Of a stretch of 64,000 bases of DNA, positions 2,419-49,633 are shown piece by piece (the stretch's first letter is position 1; every line of letters starts with the position of its first letter). This stretch comes from Escherichia phage vB-Eco-KMB39: sequence record OR539219.1, one strand, 5' to 3'. Both the position numbers and the translations under genes were made by a program. Under the pieces are notes generated by a model. That model was not told where the DNA came from and searched no databases. It saw nothing but the letters and a program-made list of their open reading frames with translations.

Positions 2419-2448
2419 ATTATACCACATCCTTGTGGTAAAGTAAAC
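2419..2448 (-). promoter_or_regulatory. T4-type early promoter upstream of rIIA.1/rIIA
   Basis: minus strand GTTTAC - 17/18 nt - tggTATAAT; approximate coordinates. Confidence 0.6.
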
Positions 2449-43914: not shown

Positions 43915-44304
43915 TTAATCCAAAATATTATTAGGCATTGGTTGAACACTCACAAGTTCTTTAAAGAACTCAGTAGAATCAGGCAATTTAACCATTTCCG
44001 GAGCATGCTTACTGAATTTATGTTTACATTGACGGCATTTATATTCAAGCTCTGGTTTACGCCAGTTAATCAATTGAACTTGTTCAGTACCGCATTCAGG
44101 GCAATTAGGAACGTTTTTAGAAGCTCTTTCACGTCGTTCAACCATAGCCATAATAGCATCCCATGCTGGAGGTTTAAAATCTAAATCGTCGCAGCCGTGA
44201 ATCTTTCCACGCATTTCCATATCATCTTCCTCACCAGCCATAATAATTTTAATTAAACTGGAATTACTTGAAGCTGCAATGTCTTCTAATAAACGCTTTT
44301 TCAT
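43915..44304 (-). CDS. hypothetical zinc-ribbon protein
   Basis: 129 aa; CPECG...CRQC. Confidence 0.4.
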
Positions 44305-45230
44305 TTCAATACCTCAATAGCATTACGTAAACCATTTGCTTTTGCATTAAGAGCTTTTAACAATTTGGTGTGTTCTGCAATTTGGGCTTCAACTCCAATC
44401 AAACGGGCATTGAGATATTCACGTTCTTCACTCAGATTATCAACCTTTTCTACTTTAGGCTCTTTTACAACTGTCTTATATGTATTAGGGTTCTTCAGTT
44501 TAATTAGAATGCGTGAACTGTATAACATTGAACCATTATCTTCGGTTTCGTCATACATTTCCACTACGTCCATAATTTTTAACATCATGCGGAGTTTATA
44601 AGACAACGAACGAATAGTTTTGTTGTGCTTATTAATTTCTTTAGCTGTCATGGTGCCAAGATTACGTGAGTAATAATAAGGAACCTGGATATTAATTAAT
44701 ACTGATGAACCACCTGGCTTGTGTGTTACTTCATCAGCAATAACCCAGTCCTTAACATGAACTGTATTTGTACGGTCATCGCCCGCGGTAAATAGTTTGC
44801 GAGCATGCTTAAAAAGCATATTCACTTGGTCATTGAATTGACAAGCAAATTTATCAGCAAATTTAGTTTCAGGAATGGTAGAAAACCAATCAGCCAAATG
44901 AGTCTTTTTAACATCATTAACAATAGTAAATTCAACCAAATCGGTTATAGATGTCTCAGATTTAATGAAGCTCGGCTTCATAAAGTTTTTAATGTTCTCA
45001 TGAGCTACAGTAGAAGATAACATACGAGAACGTTTAAACCATTCAAGCAAATTGCCTAACGAATGAGAATAAGCGTTTTGAGTATCTTTACAGATATGAT
45101 TTTCCTGGCTAACATATTGAAGGAAATCACGAAGAATATTATTGATTACTGCTCTGTGTCCGATCTGATAATTACGATGTTTAGTAATAAGACTGTCAAA
45201 ATAATCAATATAATGTTTACGAGTTTTCAT
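44301..45230 (-). CDS. hypothetical protein with C-terminal coiled coil (tandem family member A)
   Basis: 309 aa; starts MKTR; heptad-like C-terminal 40 aa. Confidence 0.5.
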   Translation of the reverse strand: MKTRKHYIDYFDSLITKHRNYQIGHRAVINNILRDFLQYVSQENHICKDTQNAYSHSLGNLLEWFKRSRMLSSTVAHENIKNFMKPSFIKSETSITDLVEFTIVNDVKKTHLADWFSTIPETKFADKFACQFNDQVNMLFKHARKLFTAGDDRTNTVHVKDWVIADEVTHKPGGSSVLINIQVPYYYSRNLGTMTAKEINKHNKTIRSLSYKLRMMLKIMDVVEMYDETEDNGSMLYSSRILIKLKNPNTYKTVVKEPKVEKVDNLSEEREYLNARLIGVEAQIAEHTKLLKALNAKANGLRNAIEVLK

Positions 45231-45284
45231 GTTCTTCTCACTTGGTTAATGATTTATACTCCGAGCCATCCTTGGCTTTAAATT

Positions 45285-46316
45285 TTACTTAATTAACTGT
45301 AAAGCCTGTTCTAAACGATCAAGACGATTAACAGATTCTTCCCAAATCCTTTTAGCCTGCTCATATTCTTTCTGCGCTTTATTAGAAATTTCTAGAACTT
45401 CTTTATAAGCTTTTTCTAATGCAATAACTTCTGGACGAATTTCTACCTGTTCAGGTGAATCATCAAGACATTCCATTAGTTCCTCAAGGGTAGTTTCTTC
45501 TTTAGGAGTATTCACAATTTCATCACATTTTTGTTGGTAAATTTCTTTATTAGTCGGTGAGTACGCACACTTTACTTCACGAAGACTAATTATAATTTTA
45601 TATCCTTCCCATCCACACATATTTTTGAAAGGATATGTATGAATACTTTTTACAGTTTCCATACAGCCCAAAGCCGTCTCTAATTGATGAGTTATAGTGC
45701 TAGCAATTGAGAAAAATTTATTAATGTTCTTTTGATTAGCTGCTGGTGTAAAAAATCCATAATTCACAAAAATAGCTACTTTATTTTTATCAAGCTCATA
45801 TTCTTTTACGATAATCATATCAGAAGCCAAAGGATGAATTTGACGATAATCGCCATAACATAATTTAGAAGCTGATTTTAGAATTTGTCCTTTGAAAAGT
45901 CTGAAATTACTAATCCAACGACGAGTAAAAATATTCTCAGGGTCTTCTTTGATATTAAGATGATAAGAATTAACATCACCGAACCAATTATATCCTACTA
46001 CATCTTTGGTTCGTTTAATTTCTTTCCCAAAATTACCAAGAATATCCCGATTAACCAAATATGAAAGAAGACGAGATCCTTTAAAGGTTTTCTTAATGGC
46101 ATCTTTATTTGTACGACTAGAAATTTCATGAACTTCATGAATAAATTTGCCGGAAGAAACAATACTTGCATCAATATTATTGAGCCATTGATTGATAATA
46201 GAAAGAACACTATTTTGGCCAAACAGCGGTATAACTTTATCATCAATAACGCTATTGAATGATTTGATATATTCGTTACGAGTCATATTAATCTCCTCAG
46301 TAGAAAGTAAGAACAT
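45285..46316 (-). CDS. hypothetical protein with C-terminal coiled coil (family member B)
   Basis: 343 aa; early promoter upstream; C-terminal coiled coil. Confidence 0.5.
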   Translation of the reverse strand: MFLLSTEEINMTRNEYIKSFNSVIDDKVIPLFGQNSVLSIINQWLNNIDASIVSSGKFIHEVHEISSRTNKDAIKKTFKGSRLLSYLVNRDILGNFGKEIKRTKDVVGYNWFGDVNSYHLNIKEDPENIFTRRWISNFRLFKGQILKSASKLCYGDYRQIHPLASDMIIVKEYELDKNKVAIFVNYGFFTPAANQKNINKFFSIASTITHQLETALGCMETVKSIHTYPFKNMCGWEGYKIIISLREVKCAYSPTNKEIYQQKCDEIVNTPKEETTLEELMECLDDSPEQVEIRPEVIALEKAYKEVLEISNKAQKEYEQAKRIWEESVNRLDRLEQALQLIK

Positions 46317-46344
46317 TATACCACATCCTTGTGGCGAAGTAAAC
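46315..46344 (-). promoter_or_regulatory. early promoter upstream of coiled-coil family member B
   Basis: minus strand GTTTACT - 17 - tggTATAAT; near-identical to promoter at 2419-2448. Confidence 0.6.
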
Positions 46345-47363
46345 TAGTTCAGTGCATTTAGTGCGTTGTTCAGTTTAGAACGTTGCTTCGTGAGATTTTT
46401 GACTTTTTCTTGAGCTTTTTCTAGCATCTTTTCAGCTTCTAGCACTTCATTGGTCGCTTTAACGAGTTCATCATCTACTGCCTTGATAGACTTCTCAATC
46501 GCATCCGCGTGCCATTTTTCAACAGGTTTAAGACTCGGATTTTCAATAGGAAGAAAATTCACTTTATTGAATTTCCATGCATCTTTATTGCCTGAACTAT
46601 ACATCCAAAATTTAGGATCGTTTGATGAGTAATTAGATAAATTTAAGTTATCTTGCACTTCTTGCTTTTTCTCTTGCGGGACTTCATCCTTTCTCAAAAA
46701 ATCGTATTTAAATGAAACGATCATATCAAGTTCATATGTTGTTGTATGTTCCCAATTTCGCTCAAAACGAGGTAAAATCTTAGAATGAACAGCGGCAACA
46801 ACATCCATATACTTAAATGCTTCTGTCAACTGCGATTTAAGGCATTCGCAAATTGAAAGAGAATTTTTTGTATTAGGTTTAAAGCTAATTCGTGCAGTTC
46901 TATTATTTTCTTTTAATGGTCTTACTTCCATCTGAAGAGTATAACCATCAAATTTCAGGTTCTTTAAGTTAATGTCAGAACCTTTTAATCGACTAGCCGT
47001 CGACAAAATTTGCTTTAATTGTTTACGGAATAGAGCAATAAATCTCCATTCAATACGATAATGATTTGGATTGAAAAATCCAGATGATAAATCGACCTTA
47101 CTCTGACCAACACCTTGAACAAACAGAGGATTTTTATAATCAATAGTTTTACAGAAATCGGTGAGCTGCTCACGAGCAGTCATTTGTGTAATATACCCCG
47201 CTTTACTAAAATGACGTAACCATTCACTGCTATTCATATATTTAAAGTGAATATCACGATTAACTTTATCAGGGTCTAAATTATTTTGGCACAAAAATGT
47301 CATAACATCACGAGTATAGCTGGCATTACGAACCATATCTTCAATTTGAGAACGAGTTTTCAT
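46344..47363 (-). CDS. hypothetical protein with C-terminal coiled coil (family member C)
   Basis: 339 aa; starts MKTR; C-terminal coiled coil. Confidence 0.5.
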   Translation of the reverse strand: MKTRSQIEDMVRNASYTRDVMTFLCQNNLDPDKVNRDIHFKYMNSSEWLRHFSKAGYITQMTAREQLTDFCKTIDYKNPLFVQGVGQSKVDLSSGFFNPNHYRIEWRFIALFRKQLKQILSTASRLKGSDINLKNLKFDGYTLQMEVRPLKENNRTARISFKPNTKNSLSICECLKSQLTEAFKYMDVVAAVHSKILPRFERNWEHTTTYELDMIVSFKYDFLRKDEVPQEKKQEVQDNLNLSNYSSNDPKFWMYSSGNKDAWKFNKVNFLPIENPSLKPVEKWHADAIEKSIKAVDDELVKATNEVLEAEKMLEKAQEKVKNLTKQRSKLNNALNALN

Positions 47364-47371
47364 GGTGTTCC

Positions 47372-48274
47372 TTAAGATTTAAGTAAATCAACAATTTTAA
47401 TTAACTTTTCACGCTCAGATTTAGCTTTACTACTCAATCCAGATAGTCTAAAGATTTCATCGTCATATTGTTGAATAGAAATATTCAGCTCTTCAATCTG
47501 CTTATTAAAATAATCAATTTGTTCAGAATGTTTTTCGTTACTACGAACTGGTATAGGTTTTGTAGGCAATTTAGTTGAACTGGATTCATCCGGGCGATAA
47601 ATTAAAATACAACTTGAACCAATCGGGCATTTTGCTCCAGATGAATATTCTAATGTTCCGGCTTCTTTTAAAACTTCAAAAGCTAAACAGAGATGATGCC
47701 CCATATTAACATAATCTGTAGAGCGAGCTCTGATATAATAATCATCGCCACGAGTACTAAATTTAAAGCATTTAAGGTCTTCTGTATTATTGGTCTTAAA
47801 AATCATTTGTTTATCTAGACCTTTAGCTAATCGAGCGCCTAATGCTAATAATCGTCGTTGATTTTCCCACAAATCCGCAATCATTTGATCGAATGACAAT
47901 TTCGGCATTAGTCGACCATAAAGGTCATATCCTTTATTATAATTGCGAAGGATTTCACTCGCGTTAATACGAGACAATGCTCCAATTTTATTAAGGGCTT
48001 TCATGATGCGATTAGATAAACCCATTCCAGACCCGTTTGTTCGTTGTAAATGTTTTTCTAATCCAAATCCAATATCAACTTTAAATTTATCTAAAATTTC
48101 AGCATGAACATCTCTGTCAATAACATTCAAATCCAAAGTTGGGTTAAATCTATGAAAAAATTTATCTGGCTCTCCACGACGAAGTACAGTCCATTCATTT
48201 AATTTTTTATTAACTAAAGATTTAATTACTGCATTGACATTATTAATTACTACTGACATATTTTTCTCACTCAA
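47372..48274 (-). CDS. hypothetical protein with C-terminal coiled coil (family member D)
   Basis: 300 aa; C-terminal coiled coil. Confidence 0.5.
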   Translation of the reverse strand: MSEKNMSVVINNVNAVIKSLVNKKLNEWTVLRRGEPDKFFHRFNPTLDLNVIDRDVHAEILDKFKVDIGFGLEKHLQRTNGSGMGLSNRIMKALNKIGALSRINASEILRNYNKGYDLYGRLMPKLSFDQMIADLWENQRRLLALGARLAKGLDKQMIFKTNNTEDLKCFKFSTRGDDYYIRARSTDYVNMGHHLCLAFEVLKEAGTLEYSSGAKCPIGSSCILIYRPDESSSTKLPTKPIPVRSNEKHSEQIDYFNKQIEELNISIQQYDDEIFRLSGLSSKAKSEREKLIKIVDLLKS

Positions 48275-48675
48275 TTTTCAATTTTACTAAATACACAGAA
48301 TATGATGGAAAAGACTATATAAGCACCGCATACAGATTGAACTAATACCATTCCAAAGAACCAAACAATATTATCAAACACTGTCTGTTTTACGTCGAAA
48401 GGACGTAAACTTACAGTAATATTATCGCCTTTTTCTATTGATGAATACATCTCTGGTGAAATATATTCACTAAATCTATAACCGTCTTTGAGTTCATATA
48501 CGGCAATAAACGATAAACTAGACCCCTTTCCTTGAGTTCCTGTAAGGGTATTAACTACAGTAACATCATAATCTTTATAATGCATATAATCATTAATTGC
48601 ATAATAACCATATGCAACTACTACACATAAACAACATATCAATAAATTCAATCTTTTAATTATCAACTGTTTCAT
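48271..48675 (-). CDS. membrane protein
   Basis: 134 aa; N-terminal and C-terminal TM helices. Confidence 0.45.
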   Translation of the reverse strand: MKQLIIKRLNLLICCLCVVVAYGYYAINDYMHYKDYDVTVVNTLTGTQGKGSSLSFIAVYELKDGYRFSEYISPEMYSSIEKGDNITVSLRPFDVKQTVFDNIVWFFGMVLVQSVCGAYIVFSIIFCVFSKIEN

Positions 48676-48730
48676 AATAATCTCAATTAAAAGGGCTTAG
48701 AACCATTATACCATCCTTGGTATAAAGCGG

Positions 48731-49258
48731 TTATGCGAGTACCGTCTTTAACCGTTCTTCAAACTTCCGAAGAGTATTTTGGCGTTCAGCTCTTTGCTTT
48801 TTGTAAGTTTCAATACGCTCTGAAATGAGATTGTATCGTTCATTTACTGATTCTTTCATAAAATCAGGAATTTCACGAGAAGCTTTAATCTCGTCAAATT
48901 TATCAATAACAGCTTGCTCTTCAGCAATTAAGTTATCATACATCAAAATATCTTTCTTGATGAACTCAATATCTTCTTGAGTTACACGAGATAATTTAGA
49001 TGCTTTATCCTTTTTGTACTGTTCGTTAGTATCACGAGACCAGTGTAATGTACGATTTTTATTCGTATTCTTGTAAATTTCTACAATACCAATCTCATCG
49101 ATAATAACGATCCAATTCCAACGAGATTTGTAAATTTGTCCTCCATCAACCGTGATTTCACCTCCAATTGAGATGTCATTAAAGAACTTGCTTTGTGCTT
49201 CTGATTTAAATTTACCATCATTGTAATTTACCAGGTTGAAAATATCTTTAGCGTTCAT
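48731..49258 (-). CDS. hypothetical protein
   Basis: 175 aa from internal Met MNAKDIF; track ORF extends through promoter-leader cassette R3. Confidence 0.45.
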   Translation of the reverse strand: MNAKDIFNLVNYNDGKFKSEAQSKFFNDISIGGEITVDGGQIYKSRWNWIVIIDEIGIVEIYKNTNKNRTLHWSRDTNEQYKKDKASKLSRVTQEDIEFIKKDILMYDNLIAEEQAVIDKFDEIKASREIPDFMKESVNERYNLISERIETYKKQRAERQNTLRKFEERLKTVLA

Positions 49259-49261
49259 TTT

Positions 49262-49310
49262 GTGTTCCTCCGTAGTTGATAGTTGTATAGTACCACAGAG
49301 GAACGGTCTT
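49262..49310 (-). promoter_or_regulatory. promoter-leader cassette copy R3
   Basis: minus strand GTTTACA - 17 - tggTACTATacaactatcaactacggaggaacacaaaATG; 7-bp inverted repeat gttcctc/gaggaac flanks it. Confidence 0.55.
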
Positions 49311-49318
49311 GTAAACAA

Positions 49319-49633
49319 CTAAAAGAAACTTCTTTCACAATTTTTTCCACTGAACCAAGCGCTCACTGCTTTCTTAGTCTCAGGAGCAGTGTTATCCATA
49401 AACCATTCAAAGGCAGCCTTTTTATGATTCTGGAGGGCTTCTCGGGCTTTAATCTGCTCACGGTCTATTAACACTAACATATGAGCCTTTCTTGTCACCA
49501 AGGGCTTCTTATGATTTTTTGAATACTCCCAATCATTTGTCCATCGCATCGTTGTTGCGAACTGAAATACTGCTTCTTTAATTTTAGTTTCGTAAATTTC
49601 ACGAGCCTTTGAGTATAACATTACTACCTCCAT
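49319..49633 (-). CDS. hypothetical protein
   Basis: 104 aa ORF. Confidence 0.4.
   Translation of the reverse strand: MEVVMLYSKAREIYETKIKEAVFQFATTMRWTNDWEYSKNHKKPLVTRKAHMLVLIDREQIKAREALQNHKKAAFEWFMDNTAPETKKAVSAWFSGKNCERSFF

Follow-up and report, generated by a model that had tools for sequence, protein, structure and literature searches.

The window analysed here is a 64,000-nucleotide (nt) stretch of Escherichia phage vB-Eco-KMB39 (sequence record OR539219.1), a Tequatrovirus (T4-like coliphage, Straboviridae). On its minus strand, four consecutive open reading frames (ORFs), nrdC.3 to nrdC.6, encode proteins of similar layout, in which a large N-terminal part (the head) is followed by a heptad-patterned C-terminal segment (the tail). 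The gene names were assigned from the annotations of ime09 and T4T. By rising coordinate, the genes are nrdC.3 (44301..45230; 309 amino acids, aa), nrdC.4 (45285..46286; 333 aa), nrdC.5 (46344..47363; 339 aa) and nrdC.6 (47372..48259; 295 aa). Downstream of this group come the genes for endonuclease VII, pin and nrdC; upstream are nrdC.7 to nrdC.11. The section from 44301 to 48274 is 99.3% identical to phage vb_EcoM_bov9_1, and megablast found matches to it in 656 phage records.

An original prediction, made from the letters of the sequence, had placed four minus-strand genes of 300–343 aa here; the four ORFs were found at those coordinates and on that strand, but the start codons of nrdC.4 and nrdC.6 had been mis-set. 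The longest ORF of nrdC.4 (343 aa) reaches an ATG at 46316, which falls in the −10 box of an early promoter (see below), and the ATG at 46286 follows a GAGGAG ribosome-binding site. Because of these two signals we read the start as ATG 46286 (MTRNEY, 333 aa) rather than 46316; most annotations of the database homologues specify 332–335 aa. For nrdC.6, where the longest ORF reaches a TTG at 48274, all homologues start with MS..IN and a GAG-rich ribosome-binding site stands ahead of the ATG at 48259, which is most likely the start (295 aa). Two of the genes, nrdC.3 and nrdC.5, do begin with MKTR as had been noticed, but MTRNEY, which had been taken for an internal motif, is the start assigned above to nrdC.4. 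Divergent nrdC.5 orthologues carry M(N/K)IKTRxEY near the N-terminus.

At the C-terminus of each of the four proteins, one unbroken heptad register extends across 47–61 residues (6.5–8.5 heptads). From nrdC.3 to nrdC.6, the tails are encoded at 44304..44444 (47 residues), 45288..45437 (50 residues), 46347..46529 (61 residues) and 47375..47545 (57 residues), all on the minus strand, and 12/14, 12/14, 15/18 and 12/16 of their a/d positions are hydrophobic (75–86%). When 85 ORFs of the window were ranked by an ad hoc, home-made heptad score of their last 35 residues, nrdC.5 came first, nrdC.3 second, nrdC.8 third, nrdC.6 fourth and nrdC.4 seventh; the clustering is far above chance. The AlphaFold2 (AF2) model of nrdC.4 folds residues 285–332 into a single helix. 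The tails thus hold at least four unbroken heptads with hydrophobic a/d positions and, in nrdC.4, for which the helix was modelled, they lie in a helix. The 47–61-residue amphipathic helix most likely forms a coiled coil, in agreement with the expectation that each gene would end in one (ranks 1, 2, 4 and 7 of 85). The set of four stands as a group of paralogues (see below), but the tail taken by itself also brings in nrdC.8 (48731..49258, minus strand; 175 aa), the orthologue of bas37_0203, in which a similar heptad tail follows an unrelated head. The gene between nrdC.6 and nrdC.8, nrdC.7 (48271..48675, minus strand), encodes a small predicted membrane protein and is not part of the family.

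All tails share, by eye, the loose ending L-x-x-A/V-I/L-x-x-L-K. Profile–profile comparison of the tails across families gave scores that were mostly at the background of shuffled controls, and the few values above it are uninformative because column shuffles destroy the heptad pattern; tail-against-tail homology was hence discarded as evidence. Coiled coils typically change length in heptad steps. The nrdC.5 tail of T4-type phages is longer by exactly one heptad (seven residues, DDELVKA) than that of the divergent orthologues in L008 and L010.

Pairwise sequence comparison (BLASTP, all against all) linked only nrdC.3 with nrdC.4 (24% identity, E 1.6e-5). In PHROGs, both match phrog_1435 over their full length (E 9e-114 and 5e-166, respectively), while nrdC.5 belongs to phrog_2351 and nrdC.6 to phrog_2257. 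The pairing of nrdC.3 with nrdC.4 is confirmed by hhalign (97.4% probability, E 1e-11), and nrdC.4 homologues carry PF26897. Over its full length, nrdC.5 matches Pfam PF23882 (DUF7235) with 422 bits (cut-off, 30), a model that found no match at E ≤ 1 in nrdC.3, nrdC.4 or nrdC.6. An exhaustive HMMER search of 1.84 billion proteins with the nrdC.3/4 profile returned 10 cluster representatives, none of them from the nrdC.5 or nrdC.6 families, and, as judged by this search, the families are very narrow at the sequence level. When a concatenated two-family alignment was used to search for homologues, the matches listed were, apart from one nrdC.6, nearly all close relatives of nrdC.5.

The full-length hhalign match between nrdC.3 and nrdC.5 was confined to the tails, and the comparison was therefore repeated without tails and alongside 45 background families. 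For this, all coding-strand ORFs from 14 contigs of related viruses and from several phage loci with annotation were sorted into 46 families, and the tails were cut off. The tail-less head of nrdC.5 then matched the nrdC.3/4 head with 94% probability (E 9e-8) over 165 collinear columns, the comparisons of these heads ranging from 83 to 94% probability and from E 9e-6 to 9e-8. This match leads the 45 background families by about three orders of magnitude, the next best for the nrdC.5 head being a 16-column fragment at E 3e-3. Its score of 58.1 compares with a maximum of 20.4 in 100 column shuffles and with 12.3 for the reversed profile. For the nrdC.6 head, the best match among the 45 families is again nrdC.3/4, albeit weak (E 0.014); with the nrdC.3/4/5 heads merged in one profile, the probability is 52% (E 1.4e-4) over 120 collinear columns, with a score of 37.1 as compared to a maximum of 21.3 in 200 shuffles and 14.2 for the reversed profile. 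The aligned head segments share the motifs K.FK.SRLLS.LV..DIL.NFGK and ILK.A.KL..GD.R. We conclude that the homology of nrdC.3, nrdC.4 and nrdC.5 extends past the coiled coil, and that nrdC.6 is very probably homologous to them, at twilight level. The four genes had been predicted to be paralogues, which the tail-less profiles bear out firmly for the link of nrdC.3/4 to nrdC.5 and weakly for nrdC.6; the check proposed at the time, for similarity beyond mere coiled-coil composition, gave a positive answer for nrdC.3/4 and nrdC.5, none of 100 shuffles reaching the nrdC.5 score.

The AF2 model of nrdC.4 (predicted local distance difference test, pLDDT, 84; predicted template modelling score, pTM, 0.69) consists of a helical subdomain (residues 1–84), an alpha/beta domain (88–235), a disordered linker and the long C-terminal helix (285–332). 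In a Foldseek search of BFVD, a library of predicted viral protein structures, it matched an nrdC.3-type protein (E 4e-8), and it also matches uncharacterised proteins of 300–370 aa in T4-like phages of Acinetobacter, Klebsiella, Pectobacterium, Erwinia and Serratia. It is paired with the model of the JS10 nrdC.6 at E 1.1e-5 and probability 1.0, the template modelling score (TM-score) being just 0.37–0.43. In the low-confidence model of the nrdC.5 head (pLDDT 43), the order of helices and strands parallels the central domain of nrdC.4 at the offset that hhalign predicts. Searches against Pfam, NCBIfam, PADLOC and PDB sequences found no enzymatic or known domain in the four proteins; the sole match to the PADLOC defence models, to BrxC (E 0.004, 13 bits), is at the level of coiled coils. 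Foldseek against the PDB yielded nothing significant (best, TRAPP Bet3, E 0.026).

We surveyed copy number in related phages, as had been suggested, and found one, three or four copies depending on the group. In tblastn against 50,697 phage records, those with nrdC.3, nrdC.4, nrdC.5 and nrdC.6 number 653, 553, 581 and 741, respectively. Tequatrovirus carries all four. Mosigvirus LF82-3 has nrdC.6-like, nrdC.5-like and nrdC.3-like genes and is devoid of nrdC.4 and nrdC.7, and a second group of coliphages of ~170 kb (L007–L015) has nrdC.6, nrdC.5 and nrdC.4, without nrdC.3. In distant genera, where the locus was found via the conserved neighbour nrdC.11, one gene of 324–335 aa occurs on the nrdC side in Klebsiella phage Kpn6N (Jiaodavirus), Acinetobacter phage 3014 (Lazarusvirus) and Salmonella phage Melville (Gelderlandvirus). 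These single-copy homologues have strong C-terminal heptad tails (scores 13–19). Their heads match the family to different degrees: that of Kpn6N fits the profiles with 93–95% probability (E 3.5e-7 to 1.7e-8), that of 3014 fits nrdC.5 with 68% (E 4.7e-5) and that of Melville reaches 49% (E 1.8e-4). The series of one copy in distant genera, three in Mosigvirus and in the second coliphage group, and four in Tequatrovirus therefore points to expansion of the family from one to three to four members at one locus.

Its most fluid member is nrdC.3, of which 361 records have an allele with at least 90% identity, 208 with 60–80% and 84 with less than 60%. The window nrdC.3 shares 97.4% identity with bas37_0198 and 60% with nrdC.3 of T4. 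It is nearer to the Mosigvirus gene (~75% at the protein and 83–86% at the nucleotide level) than to that of T4 (60% at the protein level), which suggests that the gene has been exchanged between genera. In G8 (L006:9971-11003), T2 and vB_SenS_Jbel, two ORFs stand in place of nrdC.4, which a frameshift has apparently divided, and evidently, to judge from these sequences, the gene is decaying in some lineages. The top two BFVD matches of the nrdC.4 model are 155–158-aa fragments of such split genes.

Heads are clearly less constrained than tails. Within each group of orthologues, no segment is better conserved than the tail, which has a lower ratio of non-synonymous to synonymous substitutions (dN/dS) than the head. 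Identities were compared across genera, and dN/dS was determined by the Nei–Gojobori method (NG86), pooled over nine Tequatroviruses. For nrdC.3, tails are 73–77% and heads 57–59% identical, with a dN/dS of 0.37 in the head and 0.26 in the tail; for nrdC.4, the values are 58–65% and 39–48% (head 0.25, tail 0.04), for nrdC.5, 28–31% and 18–26% (head 0.18, tail 0.12) and for nrdC.6, 58–71% and 37–40% (head 0.11, tail 0.01). The conserved tails of the original prediction thus hold within each orthologue group but not between paralogues, where it is the heads that carry the homology signal. Tails that are unlike between paralogues yet frozen within orthologue groups are as expected for specific self-association, for which we infer that each tail may be tuned. 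No gene-wide positive selection was found (dN/dS 0.11–0.37 in heads and 0.01–0.26 in tails, that is, purifying selection on average). The description of these genes as diversifying is not borne out by these averages, though the heads evolve faster and nrdC.3 exists in three deeply diverged allele classes.

A T4-type early promoter of textbook form lies at 46315..46344 on the minus strand (GTTTAC, 17 nt, TGGTATAAT; read from 46344 to 46315, GTTTAC-17-TATAAT) and drives nrdC.4 and presumably nrdC.3. A second copy of this 30-bp element, with two mismatches, occurs at 2419..2448 (minus strand), immediately upstream of the rIIA.1 ORF (2190–2393). The near identity with the rIIA.1 promoter had been noticed before; none of 100 shuffles of the window gave such a match. 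The spacer between nrdC.4 and nrdC.3 (45231–45284, minus strand) has a short stem-loop, GCCAAGGATGGC, with GTATAAATC after it. This second sequence is similar to the core of T4 late promoters, TATAAATA, and because of this similarity the spacer may hold a late transcription or RNA-processing signal for nrdC.3.

Functions have been published for some genes of this locus. T4 without nrdC.5 does not plate on ECOR17 (PMC9391042), and expression of nrdC.5 by itself is enough for the deletion mutant to plate again on cells with the SIR2 protein Dsr1 (PMC9391042; Srikant, Guegler and Laub 2022). Dsr1, a SIR2 NADase, is reported to sense the major capsid protein via a TPR sensor (PMC12803255). The window nrdC.5 is the syntenic orthologue of T4 nrdC.5 and 92.9% identical to it, and at this identity the anti-Dsr1 function can probably be transferred to it. 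The window nrdC.8 is 98.9% identical to bas37_0203, which inhibits Druantia type III (preprint 10.1101/2025.11.20.689424); according to the annotation table of that preprint and GenBank MZ501089, bas37_0198 to bas37_0201 correspond to nrdC.3 to nrdC.6. This HIDEN-SEQ preprint (10.1101/2025.11.20.689424) does not name bas37_0203 as nrdC.8. Elsewhere in the neighbourhood, T4 nrdC.1 inhibits Septu (10.1101/2025.11.20.689424) and T6 gp49.2 inhibits OLD (PMC13096335). On K-12, none of the genes from nrdC.3 to nrdC.8 is essential (10.1101/2025.11.20.689424, supplement), in keeping with their earlier assignment to an accessory region. The anti-defence role that had been proposed for the group is thus published for nrdC.5 (Dsr1) and for the nrdC.8 orthologue (Druantia III), and for nrdC.3, nrdC.4 and nrdC.6 it is a prediction.

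The window nrdC.3, nrdC.4 and nrdC.6 are built like T4 NrdC.5 (PF23882), and comparison of profiles and folds gives nrdC.3 and nrdC.4, and probably nrdC.6, the same head; all three differ from it in that they fail the DUF7235 model and are at most 13–25% identical to it. Bas37_0203 has in common with nrdC.3–nrdC.6 the gene cluster, the C-terminal heptad tail, early expression and dispensability, but it is about half their length, and its head shows no profile relation to theirs; it is not a paralogue of the four. A functional analogue of the role proposed for nrdC.5 is DSAD1 of phage SPbeta, which according to published descriptions neutralises the sirtuin defence protein DSR2 by binding, non-enzymatically; it differs in its target, in having no coiled-coil tail and in that no sequence or fold relation to nrdC.5 was detected.

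On balance, we give somewhat better than even chances to the interpretation that nrdC.3 to nrdC.6 belong to an expanded family of anti-defence proteins, early and dispensable, in which the head binds the target and the tail oligomerises. One ancestral accessory gene of T4-like phages would have been duplicated in tandem to yield the four genes, all of which are transcribed early and are not required for growth on laboratory E. coli. The head, of ~240–280 residues, would combine an alpha/beta domain with a small helical subdomain, bear no catalytic signature and be joined by a flexible linker to the tail. As a non-enzymatic module, it would bind one host immune protein and block it stoichiometrically; for nrdC.5 there is a genetic basis for such neutralisation, with Dsr1 as the published target, and the other heads would act likewise by analogy. 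The tail would make each protein a homo-oligomer and so raise its avidity for oligomeric defence proteins. After duplication, the heads would have diverged to different targets, with each tail being fixed for self-pairing. The same kind of tail on the unrelated head of nrdC.8, an inhibitor of a different system, suggests that the tail is a generic module rather than a target-binding element. In consequence of this model, nrdC.3, nrdC.4 and nrdC.6 are predicted to be candidate inhibitors of further defence systems.

Several points weigh against this interpretation. The shared fold was modelled for one member only, the alignment behind the low-confidence nrdC.5 head model being shallow. The link of nrdC.6 is at twilight level: in the reverse direction hhalign gives 5.9%, and one in 100 shuffles equalled its score against nrdC.3/4 alone. 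The oligomerisation of the tails is deduced from the sequences and a single monomer model. No account of nrdC.5 binding directly to Dsr1 was found in the literature searched. In the HIDEN-SEQ tables consulted, nrdC.3, nrdC.4 and nrdC.6 were not reported as conditionally essential in the isolates tried, with values that were non-significant (10.1101/2025.11.20.689424). Lastly, an average dN/dS below 1 everywhere means that there is no direct signal of an arms race.

The same gap in the binding literature leaves room for the idea that nrdC.3 to nrdC.6 are host-takeover or housekeeping modulators, acting on nucleoid, transcription or metabolism, and that the anti-Dsr1 effect of nrdC.5 is indirect. 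Early expression would suit such a role, and the N-terminal helical subdomain of nrdC.3 bears a faint likeness to the SAM-like DNA-binding domain of tyrosine recombinases; these matches are not significant, however, being far below cut-off (Pfam E 0.025; NCBIfam E 9e-4). All four genes are non-essential on K-12 and embedded among four genes with experimentally shown anti-defence activity, and the allele replacement and inter-genus exchange seen for nrdC.3 are typical of accessory counter-defence genes. We consider this explanation unlikely.

It is also conceivable, though we rate it lower still, that the five tails pair with each other, such that nrdC.3, nrdC.4, nrdC.5, nrdC.6 and possibly nrdC.8 act as a unit in a multi-headed hetero-oligomeric assembly. 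The trio of nrdC.6, nrdC.5 and nrdC.3 or nrdC.4 is kept in order in three coliphage groups, the tails are unusually conserved for simple homo-oligomerising coils, and all of them have the similar ending described above. The distant genera have one copy, however, because of which the ancestral protein cannot have needed partners; nrdC.4 is apparently frameshifted in G8 and T2, which retain its neighbours; and the cross-family tail profiles are mostly at background. Moreover, plasmid-borne nrdC.5 alone rescued the T4 deletion mutant on Dsr1 cells, although that mutant may retain the neighbouring genes. A related proposal, to which we assign a similarly small chance, is that the C-terminal helix is a reusable anti-defence module of T-even phages, which would bundle inhibitors or dock them on a common host or phage partner; if so, the locus would encode a combinatorial "anti-immune hub" instead of independent inhibitors.

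Very unlikely, and down-weighted by us, is a decoy function, in which the heads would imitate a structural protein of the phage, one whose fold is tail-terminator-like, and so bait immune sensors of virion proteins. The likeness to the lambda gpU fold is not significant in Foldseek against the PDB (E 0.26–0.4), without any sequence similarity, and it concerns a common two-layer alpha/beta sandwich; nrdC.3–nrdC.6 further differ from tail terminators in being early and non-structural and in having an extra helical subdomain and a coiled-coil tail. Dsr1 is reported to sense the major capsid protein with its TPR sensor, and not a tail protein (PMC12803255), which argues against it too. Highly improbable, finally, is that the four are unrelated orphan genes that share coiled-coil composition, as might be gathered from the lone nrdC.3–nrdC.4 pair in BLASTP, the split into three families in Pfam and PHROGs and the absence of nrdC.5 and nrdC.6 from the exhaustive HMMER search: the tail-less profile–profile matches with their background and shuffle controls, the Foldseek match of the nrdC.4 model to nrdC.6, the two common motifs and M(K)TRxEY N-terminus, the matching order of secondary structure and the copy-number series of 1, 3 and 4 at one locus all speak against it.

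Phage T4 has well over 100 genes of unknown function. Paralogy with nrdC.5 makes specific candidate inhibitors of other defence systems out of three anonymous genes, nrdC.3, nrdC.4 and nrdC.6, present in ~550–740 sequenced phages. Between pin and nrdC.11, an anti-defence island is coming to light (49.2/OLD, nrdC.1/Septu, nrdC.5/Dsr1 and nrdC.8/Druantia III), and the copy series of 1, 3 and 4 would constitute a natural experiment in which a phage counter-defence repertoire was widened by duplication. The map of head, linker and tail would help to work out in what way nrdC.5 blocks Dsr1. Already published are the genes, the role of nrdC.5 against Dsr1 and that of the nrdC.8 orthologue against Druantia; in the literature searched, we did not find nrdC.3–nrdC.6 described as one family, nor the copy-number series or the sharing of the tail with nrdC.8.

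A database protein of 299 aa, P0120, joins in frame the middle of nrdC.5 (to ...AWKFNKVN) and the C-terminal half of nrdC.3 (from MLFKHARKLF...). It corresponds to a deletion that removes nrdC.4, with the junction at a short common string, FN..VN.

Many GenBank genomes label nrdC.2 to nrdC.11 (43915–49633 in the window) "thioredoxin", a widespread misannotation of nrdC.N genes, to which we draw attention. The label appears to stem from the gene name "nrdC.N". No thioredoxin or glutaredoxin domain was found in Pfam or NCBIfam for any of the four, nrdC.3 to nrdC.6. The gene at the nrdC.2 position (43915–44304, minus strand) encodes a protein of 129 aa that bears the zinc-ribbon signature CPxC...CxxC (Pfam Zn_ribbon_8, E 7e-6, below cut-off) and matches bas37_0197 with 100% identity. 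In T4T, nrdC.2 measures 315 nt, so that this slot is variable too.

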